Notes under the pieces: model-generated
The model's database searches: none
What the model saw: the letters and a program-made list of their open reading frames with translations, nothing else
What the model was told of the DNA's origin: nothing
Part shown: positions 2,524 to 64,000 of the stretch, piece after piece
How positions within the stretch are numbered: position 1 is the stretch's first letter
Layout: each line of letters starts with the position of its first letter
Program-made: the position numbers and the translations under genes
Origin: an uncultured delta proteobacterium
Lineage (GTDB): Bacteria; Desulfobacterota; Syntrophobacteria; Syntrophobacterales; Syntrophobacteraceae
NCBI GenBank assembly: GCA_963808625.1
Contig: CAWEHK010000033.1
Location: 96,001-160,000, forward strand
DNA: 64,000 nucleotides
Direction of reading: 5' to 3'

Positions 2524-4283
2524 ATGAACGCAGCAATTCTTATGATCGTAGCAGCTGCTTTTTTCTGGTTCGCTTACCGTTTTTACGGAAGATACATTTC
2601 AAAGGTCTTTGAAGAAAATGATGACAATCCGACACCGGCATGTTGTCATGAAGGATGACTGTGATTATGTGCCGACCAAACCGATTGTCCTCTTCGGACA
2701 CCATTTTGCCAGCATCGCCGGCGGCGGGCCGATCATCGGTCCTACCGTCGCGATGATGTTCGGATTCATCCCCGTATGGCTGTGGGCGGTGTTCGGGAGT
2801 ATCTTTATCGGCGCCGTGCATGACATGACGACGCTTTTTGCCAGCGTCAGGGAGAAGGGACATTCGGTTGCCGAGATCGCCAAATCGACCTTGGGAAACA
2901 CGGGATTCTTTCTCTTTATCTCGTTTACCATATGCGTGCTGTTACTGGTGACCTCGGCGTTTCTGGGCCTGACGGCAACGGCTCTGACGTCTTTGCTGCC
3001 CCTGGACGTCCTCAAGCTGGATCCTTCGCAAACGGTGGTGAAGACCATCGAGGCCGGAGGAGTGGTCAAGGCCCAGATCGGCGGTATCGCCTCCACGTCC
3101 GTCATCATTATTACCTGCTTTGCACCGATTATCGGCTTCCTGGTGTATAAGAAGGGAATCAATGTTTATCTTGCCTCCGGAATCGCGATCGTTGTGTGCA
3201 TCCTTTCCGTTATCGTTGGAATGGAATATCCGATTTCCATCGCAGCCAATACCTGGATGATCATCCTCTGTTTTTATACCTTGCTGGCCGCGGGCATTCC
3301 CGTCTGGATTATTCTGCAGCCGCGGGACTTTACCAACTCGTTTTTGCTCTACGCCGGAGTTGCGGCATTGTTTATTGCAAGTATTGCGGCAGGCCTCAAA
3401 GGGGTTACCTTCAACGCCCCCATTACGAATATCGCGGCAGGGACAAGCAAGTTGGGTCCCATCTGGCCGTTTTTGTTCATTACCGTAGCCTGTGGCGCCA
3501 TTTCAGGCTTCCATTGCCTGGTTGCCGGCGGCACTTCATCAAAACAGGTTTCAAAAGAATCGGATATTATTAAAGTCGGCTACGGCGGGATGTTATTGGA
3601 AGGTTTGCTTGCCATCGGCGTCCTGGTTGCCGTCGGCTGCGGCCTCACGTTTCAGGATTACATGAATATTGTGTTCCCGACAGCCGCCGGGGCAAAGTCA
3701 AACCCGATTCTGGCCTTTGCCGCCGGCGCCGGCGGTTTGCTTGACAAAGGGTTGGGGATAGCACCCGTGTACGGGACCATTTTCGGAATTCTTCTCGTGG
3801 AAGGCTTTGTGGTCACCACCCTGGATACGGCCGTGCGGCTCAACCGATATTTATTCGAAGAGCTGTGGCAGGTTATGTTCACGAATGTTCCGAAGATAAT
3901 GAAAGGATATCTATTCAACTCGGCACTCTGTGTGATTCTCATGTACCTTCTGGCCTACAACAATGCGTTTTTGGCTCTCTGGCCCGCATTCGGCTCCGCG
4001 AATCAATTGCTTGCCTCTTTGGCGCTGATCGCCGTATCCGTGTGGCTGGTGAATAAGGGGAAAAGTGCCGTGTTTACCGTAATCCCGGCGATATTCATGA
4101 TGGCAACAACGTTATATTCACTGGTTAGTTTGCTTATTGAGACAATATCTTCCCAAGGGAGATTATATGCTAGCCGCCTTTGCGGTATTGTTGATTGTTC
4201 TTTCCATCGGTGTCATTGCATTATCATTCAAGAAATGGAGAGAAATAAGAAAGAATGGCGTAGTAGCACCAAGTGCGGCATAA
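2524..4283 (+). CDS. cstA: Carbon starvation protein A family transporter (frameshifted)
   Basis: DYVPTKPIVLFGHHFASIAGGGPIIGP, ITVACGAISGFH, TTLDTAVRL, FGSANQL motifs; SD AGGAG before ATG 2524. Confidence 0.9.
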
Positions 4284-20373: not shown

Positions 20374-20401
20374 AGTTTACATAATATATATTATCAGACG
20401 T
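20374..20401 (-). other. dif-like chromosome dimer resolution site
   Basis: Minus strand ACGTCTGATAA-TATATA-TTATGTAAACT: 11-6-11 layout with a XerD-type arm; intergenic. Confidence 0.8.
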
Positions 20402-54808: not shown

Positions 54809-55692
54809 GAGCCCTTTTTCCCGCTGACGATGGGACGAAGCAACTGGGGGAAGTCCGTGAAGATCCCGTTCACCCCCCTGGCGATCAGGGAATGCATCGT
54901 TCTTTCGTCATTTGCGACCCAGACCAGGACCGCGATGCCCCGTTCACGCAGAAGCGGAAGATCCTCTGTGTGGAGAGCAGAAACGCGTGGGTGATAGGAT
55001 GTGGCTTCCTGGTCCAGCGCGAGCCCGACAGGATTGAGAGGGCGGTGCTCGACCAGGACCCCTGTTGGAATGGCGGGATTCAAGGCTTTCACCTGCTTCA
55101 GGTAGCGGTGGTTGAATGATGAGATGAGGATGCGATCGGTCATTTCGAGCCTCGCCACCAGCCCCATGACCTTCGCGACGATCTCGCGGTCGCCGGGGCC
55201 GCCCCGCAGGTCCTTGATTTCAATGTTGACATACCATTCATGAGCCAGGGTAAATTGCAGTGCTTCGTCAAGAGTCGGCGCCCGTTCGCCTCGATAACTC
55301 TGCAAATCCTTCTCGGACACGACCCCGGCGGCAACTTGACCAAAGGGGTCCTCTTTTGCGAACCATGATCCGAAATCCAGGCGCCGGATTTCTTCGAGCG
55401 TGAATTCGCGCACCCGCCACGGCCGGCGCGATGGAAACACGTGTGCCGCATTGGACGTGCGCTTAAGGCTCTCGTCATGAATGACAATCGGCTGGCCGTC
55501 TGCCGTCATCATCACGTCCAATTCCCACAGATCCGCTCCTTCCCTCAGGGCTCTCAGCGCAGCAGACAGGGTATTCTCGGGGGCCAGGGAACGCGCTCCC
55601 CGGTGAGCGATATTTAGCATCCGGCCTTCGGCAATGGTATCGAGTAATGATTTCATGCGCGCATAAAGGGTTGTCGGTCCTGTTCGGCTCAC
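54805..55692 (-). CDS. Glycerophosphodiester phosphodiesterase
   Basis: IAHRGA..APENT, ELDV, IHD, NIEIK, GIFTDFP. Confidence 0.9.
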   Translation of the reverse strand: MSRTGPTTLYARMKSLLDTIAEGRMLNIAHRGARSLAPENTLSAALRALREGADLWELDVMMTADGQPIVIHDESLKRTSNAAHVFPSRRPWRVREFTLEEIRRLDFGSWFAKEDPFGQVAAGVVSEKDLQSYRGERAPTLDEALQFTLAHEWYVNIEIKDLRGGPGDREIVAKVMGLVARLEMTDRILISSFNHRYLKQVKALNPAIPTGVLVEHRPLNPVGLALDQEATSYHPRVSALHTEDLPLLRERGIAVLVWVANDERTMHSLIARGVNGIFTDFPQLLRPIVSGKKGS

Positions 55693-56196
55693 TCCAGCAA
55701 CTGCCGCATCTGTTCGAAGAGGGCGAGCATGTCCTTTCGGTATTGCTCGGGGAGCACCGGGAGGCGCTTCTCCGAGAGGTACACCATCTCAGCATGCCCT
55801 TCCGCCAGTTTCGTCCCCTCGGCGTCGAGGAGAGAACCTCTTGTGGAGCAACCCTTGGGAGCAAAATCGGTTTCGATTTCACCTACAGCCGTTAAGGGTA
55901 CATTCACCCGAACCGGCCGCAAATAGTGTACTCCAATGCTGCGCGTGACGAAGAAAACGCGGCGAAAGGCAAGAACCGTCCAGCCCATGATTTCATCCAG
56001 GATGGTAGAAATCATGCCGCCATGCGCAAGGTTTTCCCATCCCATGTGGTGTTTGCTCAACGTGACATCCGACCGCACCGTTTTTCCCACGCAATAGAAT
56101 GACATATTAAGCCCCAGGGGATTCTCGCTGCCACAGCCAATACAGCGGTTGCCTTTGAGTTTCGGTAGATACTTCCTTTCGGATCTGAGTCATCAT
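55689..56196 (-). CDS. PaaI/hotdog thioesterase (frameshift near the 5' end)
   Basis: CIGCGSENP.GL, AHGGMISTILDEIMG. Confidence 0.85.
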
Positions 56197-56421
56197 AACC
56201 AGGGGTCCCTCCACCTTTCAGGTCAGCTTTTCGATTCTTATAGCTCACCTTGCCGCCGATTGCGATGCTGACATAAATGGTTTATCACGCTTTTCCCAAT
56301 TGATTTGCTCCTCGATGGACAAGAAATGCTCCACGAAAAGCTTGATCAGTAATCTAAATCCTAACAGGATTTCTGAGAATCTCGCCACCCTTTTTAGGGG
56401 TCTCTCTTCTACCCAAATCTT

Positions 56422-56449
56422 GTTTGACATAAAATGCATTATGTAAATA
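56422..56449. promoter_or_regulatory. Symmetric 11-6-11 Xer-type recombination site overlapping a sigma-70-like promoter
   Basis: GTTTGACATAA-AATGCA-TTATGTAAATA; both arms read TTATGT(C/A)AA; TTGACA lies within the left arm; 70 bp upstream of the recombinase ATG. Confidence 0.6.
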
Positions 56450-56519
56450 ATCTGGAGGCGGGTTTTGGAGCGCAAAAATGCTCCTAACTGACTGCCTCCA
56501 AACCGGTTAGAAAGAAAAT

Positions 56520-57465
56520 ATGAAAACCAAAAAACAACTGCTGGTGCCGACAGCAGCACCCGGGACGGCGGCGCCGATCCCCGAAGAGTCCGTGTGGCTG
56601 AAAAATTTTGTGTCGCCACGGACCCGGCAAACCTATCTCAATGCGGTGCGCGAGTTCATCGGCTTTCATCAAATCACTGATCCCGCGGAGTTGCGGACAA
56701 TCAACCAGGCGCATGTTATCAGCTGGCGGGATTTTTTGATCGAATCCGGTGCCACCCCCAAAACTATTCACAACCGCATCTCGGCCGTGTCATCGCTCTT
56801 CAAACATTTGTGCGAGCGCCAGGTGGCGAAAAGAAACCCGACCGTGGGAGTCAAGCGCCCGCATGTCGACAGCAGCCAGGTCAAAACTCCGGTCATCACT
56901 CCCGAGCAGGTAAGAAAAATGCTCGACGTCCCTGCTCCGAAAAAACTTCAAGGGCTGCGCGACCAGGCGGTCCTCCACATTCTTTTTTACACGGGATGTC
57001 GGATCAGCGAAGTGTGTTCGCTCAAGGTCAAAGATTTCTACGAAGATGGCGGCTACTTTGTTTTGGATTTTCTGGTGAAGGGTGGAAAAAGAAATCGCCT
57101 GGCCATTCATCCAGGAGCTGCAGCTGGTTCTCAAAAACTATCTGGAGGCCTCCGGGCACCAACACAAACCGGAGGCACCTTTAATTCTCGCGGCCAAGAA
57201 GAAAACCGGCCGCAAGGAGCTCGCTCCCCTCTCCCGCCAGCAGATGCACAACCTCTTTATGCGCTATGCCCAAAAAGCCGGATTGCCCCAGGGCGTCCGG
57301 CCGCACACGGCCCGGGCAACTTTCATCACCCAAGCGCTGGAAAAGAAGTGTCCCATCGAGGCCGTCCAAAGAAGCGTCGGCCACAGCCGGATCTCCACTA
57401 CCCAGATGTATGACAAGCGGATTCTCAAACACCGGGAGAGCGCCAGCTTTGCGGTAGTTTACTAA
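56520..57465 (+). CDS. Tyrosine recombinase, full length (one extra G near 57115 relative to copy 3)
   Basis: N-terminal binding domain plus catalytic R (TGCRISE), K (VKGGK), HxxR (HTAR), H (VGHS) and Y (TQMYD). Confidence 0.92.
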
Positions 57466-57512
57466 CCGGTTTAAAGATTGGGAGAAGATACTGGTAGGTG
57501 GATTCATTTTTT

Positions 57513-57743
57513 TCAGTTGAGAATCGCAAAGAGCTGGTTTCCTCGTCTGGCCAGTCCGCAACTTTCGCCGAAGAGCGCGTAGTCCTTGAGCACGTCGCCG
57601 GCTACGGTATGGATGAGCTCGGCCAGGTGAAAGTGAGAAACAGGGGTGTAACTGTCAGTCGCCTCGGGAATCTTGATTAGGTCAAGTTCCTGCCGAGATA
57701 CTAACTTGCTGCCGTTCTTCTCGTCGATTGATAGTCCTTGCAT
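57513..57743 (-). pseudogene. Truncated DUF932-like mobile-element protein
   Basis: LVSRQELDLIKIPEATDSYTPVSH..LARRGNQLF; strong SD GGAGG; stops after 76 aa; family assigned from memory. Confidence 0.5.
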
Positions 57744-58090
57744 GGTTTACCTCCTAGATTGAGATATGCTGTTCCTTTTGGGAAAACGTGAACTTTTTCA
57801 ATCGTTCCCCCCACGGAAACAGGAATGGAGGTAACCGTGTTTGTTAAATTCTTCACTTGCTACTGTAAATTAATTCGTTCCGCTAGATACGAATATCGTT
57901 TTACGTCACTAGAAGTAATTTATTAACGACTTGATAAGTGGTTGTTGATTGATAATTGTGCCAAACATCACAAGCTATATGAAACTACAACTGCTACTGG
58001 AATGATTTTTTTGATTGAATATCGAAACTGATTCTGCTACTATGGTCCGAAATGATGAAGGTTATTATTGACGATGGAGAGGAGATGGCC

Positions 58091-58444
58091 ATGGCTTTCA
58101 AGAAATTCACTCAGGTGGGCGCGCGGTCCTTCACGCCCAAGGTGGGAATCTGGGCGAAGGGCCAGGTGGGATTCAACAAGGGAGCGGTCGAAAAATGGAA
58201 ACTCGGCCAGTACAGCTATGTGGTCCTGTACTATGACGACGACGCCAAGCAGATCGGAGTGCAGTTCACTAACGACGAAAATGCGGAAGGAGTAATTAAG
58301 ATTATCAAACGGGCAACTGGAATATCGTTCTCAGCCAACTCATTCCTGAAGCATTTCGAAATTGTCATTCCACAGGATAAGCAACAGTACGATGTGAAGT
58401 TTGACAACGAGGAGAAAATGTGTATAATCGATCTTCCAAAATAG
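58091..58444 (+). CDS. Hypothetical protein (cargo 1)
   Basis: SD GGAG; 117-aa ORF MAFKKFTQVG..VVLYYDDDAKQIGVQF. Confidence 0.75.
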   Translation: MAFKKFTQVGARSFTPKVGIWAKGQVGFNKGAVEKWKLGQYSYVVLYYDDDAKQIGVQFTNDENAEGVIKIIKRATGISFSANSFLKHFEIVIPQDKQQYDVKFDNEEKMCIIDLPK

Positions 58445-58617
58445 GAACGGCCGGGTTGACTGGCGGGTCAACTCAGCCGCTTAACGCCGTGGCGACTCTA
58501 ATTTGCCAGAGTCTCCACCGAAGCCACCCCGGTGAAGGGGTCCTATCGTATGCAAGCAGTAAGATTATAGGCACCGGGTGGGTTCGTCAAGGCCAAAATT
58601 TGGCAGATAGGAAGGAG

Positions 58618-58743
58618 GTGGCCCACCTGGCTGATAACAAGGAAAAGGACGTGATCTTCGTCCGCTACTTCCGACACTACCGAACGGGTAAGATTGTTTA
58701 CCCGAAGAAAGGTGAGTTCATTAAGATCGTAATTAAGAAATAA
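58618..58743 (+). CDS. Small basic peptide (cargo 1)
   Basis: Strong SD AGGAGGT; VIFVRYFRHYRTGKIVYPKKGEFIKIVIKK; followed by a terminator; start codon (GTG or CTG) uncertain. Confidence 0.5.
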   Translation: MAHLADNKEKDVIFVRYFRHYRTGKIVYPKKGEFIKIVIKK

Positions 58744-58792
58744 TCCTCGGCGCAATGGTCCGGACAGCCCCTTCCGGATCGCGCCTCATACT

Positions 58793-58824
58793 CCGCCCAG
58801 GTCCGCCTGGGCGGTTTCATTTTG
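58793..58824 (+). terminator. Intrinsic terminator ending cargo 1
   Basis: CCGCCCAGG-tccg-CCTGGGCGG-TTTCATTTT. Confidence 0.7.
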
Positions 58825-58870
58825 TTACTAATTTCAAAGAACTTATACTTTCCGCGCAATCTCGGGTCAG

Positions 58871-59114
58871 GCTCGCTCCCCTCTCCCGCCAGCAGATGCA
58901 CAACCTCTTTATGCGCTATGCCAAAAAAGCCGGATTGCCCCAGGGCGTCCGGCCGCACACGGCCCGGCAACTTTCATCACCCAAGCGCTGGAAAAGAAGT
59001 GTCCCATCGAGGCCGTGCAGGGAGCTCCGCCATAGCCGGATCTCCACAACACAGATGTATGATAAGCGAACTTTGAAGCACCGAGAGAGCGCCAGCTTTG
59101 CGGTGGTGTACTGA
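58871..59114 (+). pseudogene. Recombinase 3'-end copy 2 (244 bp)
   Basis: Aligns to 57219-57465 of the head recombinase and ends at the same stop position. Confidence 0.92.
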
Positions 59115-59259
59115 ACAGCTCATCAGGATGATTTGTGGCTGGTTGCAGAAATCTTAGGGGTTTGGTTTACTTGTCTGGAACAGCATTGCCCCCCCATGAA
59201 TAATCTGCTCGAAATCCTTGAAGGCCATCCGAACTCTGTCCACTCTGGAAGGAGGCTAA

Positions 59260-59469
59260 ATGTCACAAGCAAACATCAGAGAAGCACACCGGTGCGCGGT
59301 GCAATTGGACAGCCTTGGTGCGGAGTATTCAGACCGCGAAGTGATGAGGCGCTGTCTTGGCAAGTGGCGGTTTGGCATCAAATTTTGCGCTATCAATTTG
59401 GTGCGCCACATCGAAATCGCGTGGATACAAATGTTATCCATCCTTAGAGGACATATATCATCAGAATAG
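59260..59469 (+). CDS. Small hypothetical protein
   Basis: SD GGAGG; 69-aa ORF; no recognisable domain. Confidence 0.35.
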   Translation: MSQANIREAHRCAVQLDSLGAEYSDREVMRRCLGKWRFGIKFCAINLVRHIEIAWIQMLSILRGHISSE

Positions 59470-59478
59470 GAGCATGTT

Positions 59479-59770
59479 ATGCGCAAAGTCTTAGTGATCG
59501 TTTCTGTCATAGTCGCATGTTGCTGGGGCGTAGCCGAGGGTCAACTCTTGAGCAATGGCTGGGTGGTTGATGTGTCGGAGAAATATCTGACGCTAAACTC
59601 TGGCGGCGAAACCGAGAAGAAGTTCACGATCGACAGAGTTCTTACAGTCGTCCTCAATGCGAGTTGCAAAAAAACGACCTGAAAGACTATCGAGGTTGGA
59701 GGGCTTTACACTGTTCACTCGGTCGGCGGTAACGTCGCGAAAGAAATATGGCCAGGCCCCATAAGATGAT
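59479..59770 (+). CDS. Small secreted hypothetical protein (probably frameshifted)
   Basis: SD AGGAG; signal peptide MRKVLVIVSVIVACCWGVAEG; 3' end inferred. Confidence 0.45.
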
Positions 59771-59959
59771 TAAAGATTTTAATGCCTGCCCGTGCGGGGG
59801 ATGTCGGTAACGATTTATTGTAACGCGCAGGTGTTACTCGATAAAGGGGCCGATGTCGATGTTCGGGAAAAGGACGGCAATACTGCGCTGAGAGTTGCAA
59901 CCACTAAAAGAGAAACATATCAATAAATATGGTCCGTTAGGCAGAAATGGGGAAACAGG

Positions 59960-60833
59960 ATGATTAGCAAAATACGTTGGCAGCGTAGCTGTAAAGCGAG
60001 ACTGATAGCGTTGTTGGTGGCTGGCATAGCGCTGTGGACGCCCATTGCTATCGCTGGAGTGAATGAGGATTTGTTCGAAGCATCAAAGCGAGGCGATCTG
60101 CCTGAGGTCAAACGACTCATCAATAAGGGGGCCGACGTAAATGCCAAAAACAATCAAGGCTGGACCGCGTTGATGTTGGCTTCCCATAATGGCCACTTTG
60201 AAGTCGTGCAGGTGTTGCTCGATAAAGGGGCCGATGCCAATGCTAGGGAGAATAAAGGCTTTACCATATTGATGGTTGCCTGCCAGAAAGGCCACCTTGA
60301 GGTCGTGCAGACCTTGCTGGCTAAGGGTGCAGAGGTTGATGCAGAGAATGATGTGGGCGGAACCGCGTTGATGGCTGCAGCCTTCGCTGGGCACCCGGAG
60401 GTCGTGCAGGCGTTGCTCGATAAAGGGGCCGATGTCGATGCCAAGAAAAAGGCGGCAATACCGCGTTGATGGCTGCGTCCGTGAATGGCCACTTTGAGGT
60501 CGTGCAGGCGCTGATTAATAAGGGGGCGAAGGTCTATGCTAAGGAGAACAAAGGCTTTACCGCGCTGATGATGGCCGCCCAAAATGGCCACCTTGAGGTC
60601 GTTCGGATTTTGCTCCTTAAAGGTGCCGATGTCAATGCCAAGAACAACAAAGCTACAACCGCGTTGATGTTGGCTTCCCAAAATGGCCACCTTGAGGTCG
60701 TGCAGGCGCTGATTAATAAGGGGGCGAAGGTCGTAATGCTAAAACGAATGACGGCTCAACCGCATTGACGGCTGCGTCCGTGAATGGCCACCCTGAGGTC
60801 GTAAAACTGCTTGTCAAGGCGGGAGCAAAATAG
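59960..60833 (+). CDS. Exported ankyrin-repeat protein (frameshifted)
   Basis: Signal-like N-terminus; repeated GxTALMxAxxNGHxEVVQxLLxKGADVNAK across three ORFs. Confidence 0.88.
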
Positions 60834-60900
60834 TCACCCACTAGACCGAAACATTTTAGACATTTTGTTTTGTTACTCACCGAACGAGAAAGGTTTAGCA

Positions 60901-61329
60901 ATGAAAAGAATTGTAACTGTCGGTTTGATCGTTTCTATTTTTTGTATAACCTTTTTGTTCTCCGCAGTAGTGGCAGCGGGCCCAAAAGAAAGTGCGAAAG
61001 GTCATGACACTTCGACACTGCCAAAAGCACTAATAGGCCATTGGGCACCAACATCCACCACAACTCATTATTATTTTGATTCGAAATCCTTAATCACGAT
61101 AACTGATGGCAAACGCACGGCCCTAAACTACACAGTCGTGCAATCGAACGAGGCTGAAAACTCGATACATATCCGTGTAAGAACGCAAGAGGATAAAGGT
61201 CATGATAAACAATTAATATTTTCTTCTGACCGTAACTCATTTGATGAGACTATTCGAATCAGGATGGGCGATAAGGTAATGTCGTTTACTTATCAATATA
61301 AATATGTTGATTCAAATACACGCCCATGA
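60901..61329 (+). CDS. Secreted hypothetical protein
   Basis: Signal peptide MKRIVTVGLIVSIFCITFLFSAVVAA; AT-rich. Confidence 0.7.
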   Translation: MKRIVTVGLIVSIFCITFLFSAVVAAGPKESAKGHDTSTLPKALIGHWAPTSTTTHYYFDSKSLITITDGKRTALNYTVVQSNEAENSIHIRVRTQEDKGHDKQLIFSSDRNSFDETIRIRMGDKVMSFTYQYKYVDSNTRP

Positions 61330-61944
61330 TTTCATCTAACCAATAAGAATAATACTGTCTTTGATATCAAGATAAGGTAAGGCACTATAGCCGTACAGAA
61401 CCTATAATGCTAGCGATCGCACGGCGGTTGAGAAGAACATAAGCCTTTATATTTTTCATGTTCTTTATCACAACGGTCAAAATACCAAAATATTATTATC
61501 CAAGCAATAGCACAGAACGGACCCAAGGCAAGAGTTAAACCCAAAAGCGCATAACACCACTTCGTTATAGTGTCCATTCTCTCATTTTCGTATTTACGGC
61601 ATTCTTCACGGCACAGTCGCAAGTGCTTGCCGCTCTCTCCTGTTTCGCATCCAACACTAACACTAGTAAGTGTGACTAAGCCAACGAAGGTCTTAATGAT
61701 GGTTACACATGCCTCCCGCCTAGATAGGATGATGAAGTCGGGTTTGGACAATGGACACTCCCTTTCCCTTCGCATCTGCGATCAATTCGGCCAGTGAAAT
61801 AACCCGCTGATCGAGGGCATGTGCCTTTGAGAACTATACTTATTCCAGTCCAGTTATTGGCTCAGCACTGTTCCAATAAGCAACATATTCCAGAAGGACC
61901 GCCTCGGTGACACGGCCAAGCTATGGAGTTCTCACAGAATCCAT

Positions 61945-62505
61945 TTATTCTTCATTGAAATAAGGGCAGAGTCTTCTCAATTTGTCATTAGTATATGTCG
62001 AACCAGGATATAATTCCATCCTACACGAGACTGTTTTTGTCTCTCCAACTACTTGTTGCCCACCAGTTACTTGTTTTCTATACTCTGATCCTCCTGCCTT
62101 CATGGTTATACGCGTTGTTTGGGGACTGTTCCATATTTGATAAATTACGTGATCTCTGTATATAATAGTATGCTTCCCTGGCGCTAAATAAATATCTTGA
62201 GTTTCATAATCCCACGATTGGTTTAGACGTGGAAAGAAACAATATGTTTTAGGGATGTCAAATGAATCGATTTTTTGGATAATAAAACCGTTAATGATAG
62301 GAATATGTTTAATCAGCACCATGTTACCTTTTGGAATTTCACTTACAGATGAAGGAAGGTAGATAGTCACAGGACCACAAGAAGAACATCCTATTGTAAT
62401 CGTGCACACCAGTACTAGGAGACAATAATGTAGCTTAATGATTAGTTGTATGATAATAATCGTTGTATTATTTCTATCTGATTTTCTCATTTTAGACCCT
62501 TCCAA
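61945..62505 (-). CDS. Putative lipoprotein (paralog of 63433..end)
   Basis: Hydrophobic leader + IGC; IYLPSS..PKGNMVL..DIYLAPGKHT. Confidence 0.7.
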   Translation of the reverse strand: MEGSKMRKSDRNNTTIIIIQLIIKLHYCLLVLVCTITIGCSSCGPVTIYLPSSVSEIPKGNMVLIKHIPIINGFIIQKIDSFDIPKTYCFFPRLNQSWDYETQDIYLAPGKHTIIYRDHVIYQIWNSPQTTRITMKAGGSEYRKQVTGGQQVVGETKTVSCRMELYPGSTYTNDKLRRLCPYFNEE

Positions 62506-62711
62506 AAAGTAGCACGACCAATATTCTTACAAAATTACAATCTTGATAAGTTATAAGATGATGTCTCATGGTTGCGAAACTTTGTCAAGCCCTAAAGTCA
62601 GCAACGGTCAAGCACGCTAACCGTCTTCATATAGTGAGAAGTTGAAAAATGAGTCAAGTTTATGGAAAAAGGACGAACCTAACCCTTGCCTCGCAAAGAA
62701 CCTTTTTGCAA

Positions 62712-63298
62712 AGGTCAAAACTCCGGTGATCACTCCCGAGCAGGTAAGAAAAATGCTCGACTCCCCTGCTCCGAAAAAACTTCAAGGGCTGCGCGACCAG
62801 GCGGTCCTCCACATTCTTTTTTACACGGGATGTAGGATCAGCGAAGTGTGTTCGCTCAAGGTCAAAGATTTCTACGAAGACGGCGGCTACTTTGTTTTGG
62901 ATTTTCTGGTGAAGGGTGGAAAAAGAAATTGCCTGGCCATTCATCCAGAGCTGCAGCTGGTTCTCAAAAACTATCTGGAGGCCTCCGGGCACCAACACAA
63001 ACCGGAGGCACCTTTAATTCTCGCGGCCAAGAAGAAAACCGGCAGGAAGGCCTTCGCTCCCCTATCGCGCCAGCAGATGCACAACCTCTTTATGCGCTAC
63101 GCCCAAAAAGCGGGACTGCCCCAAGGGGTCCGGCCGCATACCGCCCGGGCCACTTTCATTACCCAGGCCTTGGAAAAAAAGTGCCCCATCGAGGCGGTGC
63201 AAAGAAGCGTCGGCCATAGCCGGATCTCCACAACACAGATGTATGACAAGCGGACACTCAAACACCGCGAATCCGCCAGCTTTGCGGTAGTGTACTAA
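62712..63298 (+). pseudogene. Recombinase 3' copy 3 (587 bp; entire catalytic domain, open frame from 62642)
   Basis: Aligns to 56878-57465; all catalytic motifs intact; N-terminal binding domain absent. Confidence 0.92.
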
Positions 63299-63432
63299 GT
63301 GCTCATCAGCATGATTTCCGGGGGTCGGCTCACTTTTCTCTTGACGGCATCTATCCTTCAAACATAAGATTCTTCGAGTTCAATAATTCATGATGACGCT
63401 TCGATATTCATTCATCCTAAAAGGAACTTAAG

Positions 63433-64000
63433 ATGGCGATAGCAGGAATTAGTAATCGGAATGTCTTTGCGAAACATTTAACCATTGGCACAAAGTGCCT
63501 ACTAGTAGTTATATTCATGACTACGCTAGGATGTTCTTGTGGCCGTGGCACTCTTTACATTCCATCATCAATAAATACAATGCCTAAAAGCAATATGGTG
63601 CTGGTTGCCACCCAAGACAATTTATACTTGCCTACAATAGCTAGCGTTGATGGTGTTGATATGCGTGATAGACATTGCATTTTAAAAAATACAAAAGATT
63701 ACGACATTTATTTAATGCCAGGAGCACATACCTTTCAGATTCAAACTGCTCACTGGGAATATATAGGATCATCTAATACTGTACATATATATAAAGGTTT
63801 CATACATAGCCCAGGGGTAGGAGGAGGTCCAGATATTGTATACCCTGGAGGAGCCCATTTTAAGGCGACCGTAATCACAAAACCATGCACGTTGCAATTG
63901 GACCGTCCTGGTGGGAAATATACTCAATTGGAAGTGATGAAACTCTGCGGCCTGATTTGTACACAATATGACTGTTATCCTTACTATAATACTCCGTCAG
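63433..64000 (+). CDS. Putative lipoprotein, runs off the right edge (not in the ORF track)
   Basis: Manual translation MAIAGISNRN..LGCSCGRGTLYIPSSINTMPKSNMVL..DIYLMPGAHT.. stays open to the window end. Confidence 0.75.
   Translation, partial: MAIAGISNRNVFAKHLTIGTKCLLVVIFMTTLGCSCGRGTLYIPSSINTMPKSNMVLVATQDNLYLPTIASVDGVDMRDRHCILKNTKDYDIYLMPGAHTFQIQTAHWEYIGSSNTVHIYKGFIHSPGVGGGPDIVYPGGAHFKATVITKPCTLQLDRPGGKYTQLEVMKLCGLICTQYDCYPYYNTPS

Follow-up and report, generated by a model that had tools for sequence, protein, structure and literature searches.

A recombinase gene followed by truncated copies of itself: most likely a record of repeated arrival and decay of a mobile module

Near the right end of the 64,000-nucleotide stretch of DNA analysed here (the window), a tyrosine recombinase gene is followed by blocks of other genes that are parted by copies of its own 3' end. 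How did such an array arise, and is the recombinase gene itself a landing pad for incoming DNA, as the initial annotation proposed? Three copies are present, all on the + strand, in direct orientation and ending in ...HRESASFAVVY and a stop codon. Copy 1, the head (56520-57465), is of full length, with a SAM-like N-terminal domain and a catalytic domain. Copy 2 (58871-59114) comprises the last 244 nt of the gene, beginning at gene nt 700, and is broken by indels. Copy 3 (62712-63298; 587 nt) begins at gene nt 359; its ORF (62642-63298, 218 aa) retains the entire catalytic domain in frame and intact (Pfam PF00589, 1.3e-27). Alignment and blastn/tblastn thus bear out the description of three direct copies with a common stop and differing 5' truncations. 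Copies 1 and 3 are identical at 547 of 586 positions (1 gap column), copies 1 and 2 at 222/242 and copies 2 and 3 at 206/242 (4 gap columns each); in blastn against the assembly, copy 2 was recovered at 92% identity (E 5e-94) and copy 3 at 93%. A search for further 3'-end copies had been suggested, and blastn and tblastn over the whole 4.8 Mb assembly returned none besides these three. The other tyrosine recombinases of the assembly are at most 39% identical, over short segments only, and no detached N-terminal fragment of the recombinase was found in the genome.

The head had been described as a full recombinase. It is indeed of full length, aligning end to end with relatives of 310-322 aa and showing 86-89% identity to one of them, P0002. 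As assembled it is not a single open frame: an extra G in CATCCAGGAGCTG (57108-57120), where copy 3 reads CATCCAGAGCTG, causes a +1 frameshift and splits the gene into ORFs 56520-57413 and 57082-57465. Comparison with ORFs of 250 aa or more from the same-genus genome G003 showed the assembly to be rich in indels: 10 of the 48 orthologues have frame changes, and two proteins of 1352 and 1370 aa each lie in 5 pieces. This frameshift is therefore probably an assembly artefact. Another relative, P0003, lies on a 30 kb contig and is 88% identical to copy 3; it may be an allele closer to that copy.

The closest solved chains are an XerC-like recombinase (4a8e) and XerD. The protein is not, however, an XerC or XerD of chromosomal dimer resolution, since it scores 154 bits with the XerD model (cutoff 329.6) and 134.9 with that for XerC (cutoff 335.15). 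The integron models were scored on P0002, which is 86-89% identical to the pieces of the window's recombinase; with the integron-integrase model TIGR02249 it matched as two separate segments, at 88.8 bits (cutoff 265), and with NF011946 it scored 63.4 (cutoff 435). The recombinase is therefore not an IntI, in line with the lack of an IntI-specific insertion noted before. A family member was found in 1 of 400 genomes of the same phylum, at 39-41% identity, and 209 proteins at E<=1e-10 came from metagenomes, MAGs and Marinicella. Besides Marinicella, the labels of the relatives include Competibacteraceae, Cloacimonetes/Cloacimonadota, Desulfobacter, Desulfobacula, Nitrospinaceae and Magnetococcales. 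Judged by these comparisons, the recombinase belongs to a distinct Xer-like clade that is spread over many phyla.

Upstream of the head gene is a symmetric dif-like site, GTTTGACATAA-AATGCA-TTATGTAAATA (56422-56449, + strand), with the Xer-type form of arms of about 10-11 nt, a 6-nt spacer and an ATAA/TTAT core. It lies 71 nt upstream of the recombinase start as an inverted repeat of its own, directly linked to the gene, and overlaps a sigma-70-like promoter (TTGACA-16-AATAAT, 56424-56451; 11/12 match). The site picked out in the initial annotation proved to be unique in the assembly, as its sole CATAA-N6-TTATG, and typical of the family: of 58 related loci, 29 have an ATAA-N6-TTAT palindrome within 400 nt upstream of the gene, compared with 7 among 1209 control windows, and 7 others have it 480-2000 nt upstream; its arms vary among loci. 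Because the palindrome recurs in this way, we take the site as real and, on the evidence of sequence, as the probable cognate site of the recombinase family. It would then be a putative recombination site of the recombinase, or it may be an operator alone. A possible but weak accessory half-site, TGACATAA-ATGGTT (56269-56290, + strand), stands 156 nt further upstream; it includes GACATAA as an exact 7-mer, of which the 19.4 kb scanned would by chance contain about 1.25, and matches as an 18-mer with 3 mismatches. Near the right end of the insertion described below, a weak site-like sequence at contig positions C33:170406-170426 has 4 mismatches and a gap over 19 nt (rough chance estimate 0.005-0.01). 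The arms of the main site match one arm, GTTTACATAA, of the host's chromosomal dif. We reject the main site as the dif of the lineage, since the conserved dif is GTTTACATAA-TATATA-TTATCAGAC at window positions 20375-20401, found once per genome in 16 of 25 relatives (a control pattern gave 0 matches), and since no counterpart of the site at 56422 was found in relatives.

The array forms the left third of an insertion of about 18.3 kb between GDPD and fabH. The insertion is missing from G003, where PNP-GDPD is followed by fabH after about 218 bp, and synteny with that genome picks up again at C33:170446, 10.4 kb beyond the window end. The island sits in the terminus region, and the true dif is 36 kb away. 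At its left edge is a 4HBT thioesterase gene (55689-56105, - strand; PF03061, 8e-07) whose N-terminus is apparently frameshifted (MMTQIRKE... in one frame, ...YLPKLKGNRCIGCG in another); a thioesterase beside GDPD is absent in G003 and had 1 partial match in the GDPD loci of 19 relatives. Since the 40 close genomes hold no relative of the recombinase above 36% identity, yet 209 related proteins are found across other lineages, we conclude that the island is horizontally acquired.

Behind the head, block 1 (57466-58870, about 1.4 kb) has ORFs at 57513-57743 (-), 58052-58444 (+) and 58420-58743 (+); none has a Pfam or NCBIfam match, and no longer homologue was found for its 76-aa ORF. The block closes with a strong terminator-like hairpin (58793-58814) that has 9 pairs, all but one of them GC, and a T tail. 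Block 2 (59115-62711, about 3.6 kb), with GC content down to 36-46%, includes a signal-peptide ORF, an ankyrin-repeat gene (59960-60768; Ank_2, 2.3e-41; 99-nt repeats) that is split by frame changes, and lipoprotein-like ORFs at 60811-61329 (+), 61410-61775 (-) and 61945-62505 (-). Block 3 starts at 63299, contains a lipoprotein gene (63433-64005, +) and continues to 64000 and beyond the window with the insertion. This gene and 61945-62505 (-) are paralogues (30-32% amino acid identity) that flank copy 3; apart from them, no DNA is shared among the three blocks. The copies had been seen as separators of cargo units. Since copy 3 stands between divergent lipoprotein paralogues, it instead resembles an insertion into one block. 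The annotation had also reported no tRNA target and no transposase: no tRNA gene lies in C33:150-190 kb, and the second statement holds inside the window but not for the whole insertion, which from 1.1 kb past the window end carries two serine resolvases, Tn3 transposase pieces and an IS1-like fragment. Beyond the array, the island consists of debris from mobile elements. A resolution module of the Tn3-family TnpI/IRS kind was rejected, as a Tn3 DDE domain lies within 4.5 kb of the recombinase in 1 of 11 related loci examined (L090) and the Tn3 pieces here are more than 8 kb from the recombinase, beside a serine resolvase of their own.

Several known systems share parts of this layout. XerS/difSL of streptococci and lactococci and XerH/difH of Helicobacter and Campylobacter likewise combine one Xer-type gene with an adjacent inverted-repeat site. 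There they serve dimer resolution, whereas this lineage has its own dif at 20375-20401 and relatives without the recombinase; XerS has 356 aa according to a review, against about 315 aa here, and the XerS model scores 68.2 bits against a cutoff of 267. Unlike those modules, the one described here is mobile across phyla and found at the edge of variable DNA. A single-copy, vertically inherited dimer-resolution system of the XerS/XerH type was rejected on the identity of at most 36% in 40 relatives and the 1 of 400 same-phylum genomes. In consisting of a recombinase and its own site, the module resembles Cre/loxP. The IMEX (CTX and TLC phages, the gonococcal island) integrate at dif itself, depend on host XerCD and are not known to have a recombinase of their own. 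A dif-like site on a mobile element, a position in the terminus region and several elements piled up are features common to both, but the island encodes its own recombinase and lies away from dif, so the IMEX reading was rejected. Elements also accrete at the 3' ends of target genes, as ICESt1/3 do in fda and e14 and phage 21 in icd. ICE/CIME accretion leaves the same footprint as seen here, in which direct copies of a gene's 3' end part the blocks behind it; in those cases, however, a housekeeping gene serves as target, the element carries the integrase within it and one fixed core is common to the repeats, whereas here the repeated gene is the recombinase itself and the blocks have neither an integrase nor a visible fixed core. 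A check for this arrangement found repeats but no common core, with site-like sequences at the head and, weakly, at the right end. In archaea, SSV integration splits int into N- and C-terminal parts, always at the same point, and these come to lie at the two ends of the provirus. The idea of a recombination site within the integrase gene is common to both, but an SSV-type att site was rejected, since the genome has no separate N-terminal part and the C-terminal copies start at two different points. Integrons, too, have a variable array headed by a tyrosine recombinase, and toxin-antitoxin neighbours are frequent among the relatives of the present recombinase. In contrast to integrons, the recombinase has no IntI signature and its site is upstream and oriented as the gene. 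Integron cassettes, which end in an attC, mostly hold one promoterless ORF, whereas the blocks here hold several on both strands, and blocks 1 and 2 have promoter-like and terminator-like sites of their own. The integron was rejected on the IntI models and on these multi-ORF, two-strand blocks.

Related loci, which were fetched via C-terminal peptide patterns, have variable neighbours, often toxin-antitoxin and defence genes. Downstream recombinase fragments are present in 8 of the 57 loci having at least 1.5 kb downstream, and direct C-terminal fragments, which the annotation had suggested looking for, recur in five of them. L063 has a 218-nt 3'-terminal copy 7.1 kb downstream of the head; L099, L100 and L104, of one lineage, have one of 72-76 nt behind a toxin-antitoxin pair; and L116 has one of 66 nt behind a methyltransferase and a DUF262/HNH-like gene (both named by eye). 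The fragments in L111, L112 and L129 are internal and fall short of the stop codon. A second site-like motif in L099 has a spacer unlike that of the first and may be the operator of the toxin-antitoxin operon. Copies that are 5'-truncated yet retain their own site occur in L105, L128 and L131-L133; the deletion in L105 sits between CAAAAA microhomologies, as a plain microhomology deletion would. In several locus pairs homology begins within a few nt of the site, and L111 and L114 have 2.95 kb in common at 93%, from site to stop codon, with no other common stretch longer than about 400 nt.

The copies in the window are mosaic. Copy 1 matches copy 3 at 98-99% in 56878-57191; in 57219-57365 it matches copy 2, with 20 sites grouping copies 1 and 2 against copy 3; and past 57366 all three differ from one another. 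One switch thus falls at about 57191-57219 and the other at about 57365; such differing positions fit homologous exchange and not a single core site. Beyond the stretches of near identity, divergence among the copies is 12-15%, with most of the differences at synonymous sites, and it is in the last 100 nt that they diverge most (about 85% identity).

With moderate confidence, we take the array most likely to reflect a [site + recombinase] module that was inserted repeatedly, decayed and underwent homologous recombination. The module would consist of the dif-like site overlapping the promoter, followed by the Xer-like gene, whose product presumably binds the symmetric site as a homodimer. Modules of this family would land beside or within variable DNA, and more than one copy would come to stand in direct order at one locus. 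Redundant older copies would then decay, ordinary deletions taking the site and the 5' part, and the copies would swap sequence by homologous recombination or gene conversion, giving the mosaic seen. This order of events, and a past of copies 2 and 3 as complete modules, is what we infer. The island, its acquisition, the Xer-like but distinct recombinase, the cognate site, the homology that begins at the site in several locus pairs, the frequent decay and the relics in relatives, the mosaic, the paralogues beside copy 3 and the debris all count in favour of it. Against it, no clear site remnant was found ahead of either truncated copy: a half-site-like TTATGGAAAAA (62660-62670), 42 nt from the start of copy 3, matches 9/11 of the right arm, with a chance of about 0.03 by our own estimate, and an atypical GTAA-type palindrome (58685-58704) stands 167 nt before copy 2. 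Also counting against it, the intact terminator just before copy 2 looks tidier than random deletion, and two full modules in tandem were found at none of 85 loci. The exact 3' end kept in the secondary copies here and in L063, L099, L100, L104 and L116 points to a special junction at the end of the gene, which repeated arrival and decay leaves unexplained.

The reading of the initial annotation is insertion into the recombinase gene itself as a landing pad. Circles made up of a 5'-truncated recombinase 3' end and the genes behind it would enter the head gene, whether through recombinase action at a core close to the stop codon or through one homologous crossover within the segment they have in common; the head would be regenerated and older blocks shifted downstream. 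The direct 3'-terminal copies behind gene blocks in related loci of independent lineages would suit this, as would block 1 closing with its own terminator and the mosaic, the trace expected if single crossovers had twice in succession fallen in near-identical stretches. Moreover, a head and its fragment, or two related loci, often cease to be homologous within a few nt of the stop codon; in L063 identity falls from 97-98% to none exactly there, and L066 and L067 differ only after the stop (3.4 vs 2.0 kb) before their match resumes. We nevertheless judge this origin unlikely. The varying truncation and inferred crossover points leave no fixed core, conservation is lowest in the last 100 nt, the 3' end of the gene is unlike the family's palindromic site, internal fragments elsewhere fall short of the stop, and the repeat in L099 extends 35 nt beyond it. 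The 5'-truncated relatives that retain their own site, and copy 3 with its look of an insertion into one block, speak against it as well. Diverged loci are expected to lose homology at the stop in any case, since coding DNA is conserved and flanks are not, and the apparent absence of 3'-truncated solo copies is partly ascertainment bias, because the loci were fetched with C-terminal peptide patterns. Circles bearing truncated copies also presuppose prior decay. Copies 2 and 3 are therefore likelier to be independently decayed elements, and the claim of a site-specific landing pad within the coding sequence is not upheld: the array is most likely a record of repeated module arrival and decay, and not a new gene-capture system of that kind.

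Less likely still is a single arrival followed by local duplication, with the extra copies made by unequal crossing-over or illegitimate duplication and then altered by divergence and gene conversion. The 98-99% stretches common to the head and each fragment, the lipoprotein paralogues on both sides of copy 3 and the position of all three copies within 7 kb would agree with it, but the divergence outside the near-identical stretches is too high for recent in-place duplicates and more like that of separate alleles, and the blocks have no common DNA except those distant paralogues. An artefactual array, joined from strain haplotypes during error-prone metagenome assembly, is highly improbable, even though the assembly is indel-rich. 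With differences of 7-15% between them and unique flanks around each, the copies are not the product of repeat collapse or expansion; synteny is conserved on both sides of the island within a contig of 204.7 kb, and analogous layouts are present in independent assemblies.

The recombinase gene occurs in the window in three direct copies that share the ending ...HRESASFAVVY and a stop codon, as the initial annotation had described and as ORF listing, repeat finding and a three-way alignment confirmed. Copy 1, the head (56520-57465), is full length, copy 2 (58871-59114) begins at nucleotide 700 of the gene, and copy 3 (62712-63298) begins at nucleotide 359. The copies are identical at 547/586 positions (1 and 3), 222/242 (1 and 2) and 206/242 (2 and 3), and blastn and tblastn searches of the whole 4.8 Mb assembly revealed none beyond these three. 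The head had been called a full recombinase, which holds for its length but not for its reading frame, as an extra G within 57108-57120 splits the gene as assembled. Frame changes were found in 10 of 48 orthologues of long ORFs from G003, a same-genus genome, and the genes for two proteins (1352 and 1370 aa) each lie in five pieces; this marks the assembly as rich in indel errors, and one frameshift in the 946 nt of copy 1 is the level expected from assembly noise. Copy 2, with 4 gap columns in 246, exceeds this expectation and has probably decayed genuinely. Any pseudogene call in this assembly needs support from reads. Indel-rich regions include C22:89327-97490 and C33:170554-171550 (C33 being the 204,744 bp contig of which the window is positions 96001-160000), and further split genes are fabH, the thioesterase N-terminus and the ankyrin gene at 59960-60768.

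The recombinase carries a SAM-like N-terminal domain and a Phage_integrase catalytic domain (Pfam). Among NCBIfam models it lies nearest to XerD, XerC and XerA, yet far under their cutoffs, and it scores far under the integron-integrase models, in agreement with the earlier statement that it is not an IntI. The closest solved chains are an XerC-like recombinase (4a8e) and XerD. A protein search returned 209 proteins at E<=1e-10; among the best 120 of these, identity ranged from 54 to 100% and length was mostly 300-330 aa, and the source labels of some of the matches listed were Competibacteraceae, Cloacimonetes, Desulfobacula, Desulfobacter and Proteobacteria. In the alignment, conservation extends to the C-terminal HRESASFAV.Y and to the R-H-R-Y catalytic positions, assigned by eye. 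Marinicella litoralis KMM 3900 (locus L064) carries an intact member of the family, and P0003, a 181-aa protein from a 30 kb contig, is 88% identical to copy 3 and may represent this array in another strain. Nothing above 36% identity to the recombinase was found in 40 close relatives, and within the phylum 1 of 400 genomes had members, at 39-41% identity. This near-absence marks the gene as an acquisition. A literature search, mainly at abstract level, found no description of the recombinase family or of the array layout, which is weak evidence that they are absent from print.

Comparison with G003 placed the array in a larger context. In G003 fabH comes about 218 bp after a PNP-like gene and GDPD, while here about 18.3 kb (C33:152105-170446) lies between the GDPD and fabH positions. 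Since this DNA is absent from G003, the array outlined by the initial annotation is the left third of a genomic island, in which GC drops from 54-59% to 36-50%. The thioesterase adjoining GDPD likewise lacks a counterpart in G003, and the loci of 19 relatives gave a single partial match. Past the window, the island remainder (C33:160590-170446; fetched as L004:10590-20000 and L005:1-446) is a heap of decayed mobile elements: two serine resolvases, a Tn3 transposase broken into several parts, another Tn3 C-terminal fragment, a zinc-finger fragment of IS1-like type and, by eye, a small PIN-like ORF. The reported lack of a tRNA target was borne out by zero tRNA genes in C33:150-190 kb. A sequence at the right end of the island (C33:170406-170426) resembles an attR, with 4 mismatches and a gap over 19 nt; it falls below the genome-scan threshold and is a weak lead. 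The genes between the recombinase copies have no homologues in the 85 related loci we collected (5 from genomes and 80 from metagenomes). A 76-aa ORF after copy 1, considered as a possible truncated DUF932-like gene, has neither a Pfam or NCBIfam match nor a longer homologue, and the idea was dropped. Two paralogous lipoprotein-like genes, at 61945-62505 (minus strand) and 63433-64005 (plus strand), point away from each other with copy 3 between them; they share 30-32% amino acid identity and DNA patches of 74% identity arranged as inverted repeats, which suggests that copy 3 may have inserted into one block.

The symmetric site upstream of the head (56422-56449) is present as annotated and is the sole CATAA-N6-TTATG in the assembly. 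We asked how often such a site accompanies the family, using the 58 loci in which the gene is nearly full length and preceded by 150 nt or more, and scoring ATAA-N6-TTAT with an arm symmetry of at least 8 of 10. A palindrome lay at most 400 nt upstream of the gene in 29 of 58 loci, against 7 of 1209 control windows taken from other parts of the loci. Nine palindromes fell outside the 450 nt before the gene, seven of them 480-2000 nt upstream with small same-strand genes between. The outer arm bases vary by subgroup with symmetry kept (e.g. TTAGACATAA, GTTCTGATAA, CCGTCGATAA and TTAGTGATAA), and this symmetric co-variation is the behaviour expected of a predicted homodimer-binding site. As the window site overlaps a near-consensus promoter (TTGACA-16-AATAAT), the palindrome could also be an operator. 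A half-site after the stop codon, expected if a circular form joins stop to site, is absent here and in relatives L111-L117; a recurring GTTATCGGGAAGCC motif proved to be coding sequence. On a short contig (G008:C603:70-95, locus L049), the palindrome TTGCATAA-N6-TTATGTAAAG lies upstream of a distant tyrosine recombinase (25% identity), and the pair may represent a module of this type in a different clade.

We also considered the site as the chromosomal dif and rejected this, since the dif of the lineage lies elsewhere and the site's own pattern gives chance-level matches in relatives. The chromosomal dif, GTTTACATAA-TATATA-TTATCAGAC, is at window 20375-20401 (C33:116375-116401). A 29-mer there is 100% conserved between G003 and this genome within an otherwise diverged intergenic stretch, and the core occurs exactly once in 16 of 25 relatives, this genome included, with zero control hits. 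The arms of the island site equal the GTTTACATAA arm of dif, the right arm in 9 core bases and the left arm save for one extra G. The GDPD locus thus falls in the terminus region, at 19-36 kb from dif (the lower figure, about 19 kb, being that of the single-contig genome G015); the GC skew of the contig, with a broad maximum at about 132-160 kb, fits this region and is too flat for placement.

Self-comparison of the 57 of 85 loci with at least 1.5 kb past the gene revealed that downstream 3'-end copies recur; no locus among the 85 carries two full copies. Direct 3'-end copies are found in L063 (218 nt, 7.1 kb downstream), in L099 and L100 (76 nt, 0.68 kb downstream), in L104 (72 nt) and in L116 (66 nt, 2.3 kb downstream). 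Since L104 is collinear with L099 at 81.5%, L099, L100 and L104 represent one lineage. Judged by eye, the DNA between head and fragment codes in L099/L104 for a pair resembling a toxin-antitoxin system, and in L116 for a methyltransferase and a DUF262/HNH-like protein. L111, L112 and L129 contain pieces from the interior of the gene that end short of the stop, and solo 5'-truncated copies lie inside contigs in L105, L125, L128, L131, L132, L133 and L145, with the palindrome retained just upstream in L105, L128, L131/L132 and L133. L105 has lost roughly 340 bp by a deletion between CAAAAA microhomologies, beside an intact site. Because loci were retrieved by C-terminal peptide patterns, the seeming lack of 3'-truncated solo copies is partly an ascertainment effect. 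In L131:4190-4700, L132 and L133:1-560 the palindrome, leader and start codon are retained and the N-terminal DNA-binding domain is deleted, so that a short N-terminus is fused to the catalytic domain; these forms could be dead genes or catalytic-domain-only variants.

Pairs of related loci were then compared for the limits of their homology. In most pairs the downstream end lies about 1-12 nt from the last codon and the upstream end is variable; in the group around L093 homology ends 20-60 nt beyond the last codon. L111 and L114 are 93% identical over 2.95 kb that begin 6 nt left of the site and end at the stop, and they have no other stretch longer than about 400 nt in common. L066 and L067 diverge at the stop into unlike stretches of 3.4 and 2.0 kb, after which they match again. 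The head and fragment of L063 show 97-98% identity across roughly the last 165 nt and no relation directly after the stop, and in L099 the repeat extends 35 nt beyond the stop and includes a palindrome. In the window, copy 1 parts from copies 2 and 3 at the stop, while those two remain alike for about another 20 nt. The clustering of these ends indicates that the gene end is often a sharp junction. Within the gene the three copies form a mosaic. Copies 1 and 3 are 98-99% identical from 56878 to about 57191; copies 1 and 2 are near-identical over 57219-57365, where 20 sites unite copies 1 and 2 against 3 and 2 sites unite copies 1 and 3 against 2; beyond 57366 each copy differs from the other two by about 15%. 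The second near-identical stretch begins at the 5' edge of copy 2, and the switch points lie at differing positions. This pattern shows homologous exchange among the copies, by gene conversion or by single crossovers during integration, and argues against a single fixed crossover core.

The explanation we favor, in which we place about as much trust as doubt, is that units of site plus recombinase would land more than once at the locus, that older copies would decay and that resident copies would recombine with each other. We prefer this repeated landing because the site is conserved, the array lies in an island, decay is frequent in relatives, internal fragments occur and lipoprotein paralogues flank copy 3. 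Counting against it, no clear site remnant was found before copies 2 and 3, and a tidy terminator precedes copy 2; the sharp junction at the gene end is also left unexplained. That junction, together with the 3'-terminal copies recurring in relatives, would instead favor the proposal of the initial annotation that the recombinase gene itself is the insertion point for a 3' end with its cargo. This proposal presupposes truncated copies and lacks a fixed core: any core would need to sit within the last 100 nt, the part in which the copies are least conserved. The stretch of near-identity between head and fragment has no consistent position, being at the 5' edge in the window and in the 3' part in L063. 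We regard it as unlikely.

Duplication of one module in place would fit the near-identical stretches but not the 12-15% divergence elsewhere, and is quite unlikely. A chimeric assembly is highly improbable given the unique flanks of the copies and the analogous loci in other assemblies. It is likewise doubtful that this Xer-like family stacks gene arrays behind its own gene, with the gene end, at or near the stop, as the preferred junction where units of recombinase 3' end plus cargo would be inserted and excised, and with toxin-antitoxin, defence and other genes accumulating downstream of one regenerated head. Were this so, it would amount to integron-like capture with a coding-sequence repeat in the place of attC, and the gene as landing pad would be a new bacterial way of stacking genes behind a recombinase gene.

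The nearest known kind are the XerS/difSL and XerH/difH systems, single-recombinase Xer modules with the site beside the gene as far as they are described in PMC5357621. The likeness lies in one recombinase gene with an adjoining site; unlike those systems, the module here is accessory, mobile and at the head of an island. The array is not an integron, an XerCD/dif system or of the SSV type to which it had been likened, and the island is not an IMEX in the strict sense. If repeated landing of modules is correct, they would form a widespread and apparently undescribed clade of mobile recombinases with their own dif-like site, and would mark, in many uncultured phyla, small islands that carry toxin-antitoxin, defence and other accessory genes. 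Since the sites are conserved and co-vary, they would supply a set of natural recombinase/target pairs. With the site arms resembling the host dif arm, one may also ask whether there is cross-talk with chromosome dimer resolution.

Several neighbourhoods deserve separate mention. In L091, L093 and L097 a RES-Xre toxin-antitoxin pair accompanies the site and recombinase, about 1 kb upstream of the latter; these loci are 82-87% identical from the RES stop to the recombinase stop, and their further flanks have no blastn match. Downstream of the family member in L142 (11549-15976) are genes for a ThsB-like TIR protein, a caspase-like peptidase, a Macro-domain protein and a KAP NTPase, a defence-island-like neighbourhood; a recombinase fragment upstream of that head, considered as a piece of the family, belongs to another (28% identity). 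In L116, the 3'-end fragment is immediately preceded, at 3920-3962, by a perfect inverted repeat whose arms are about 20 nt long (GCCTCACCCTTTAAAGTTAC...).
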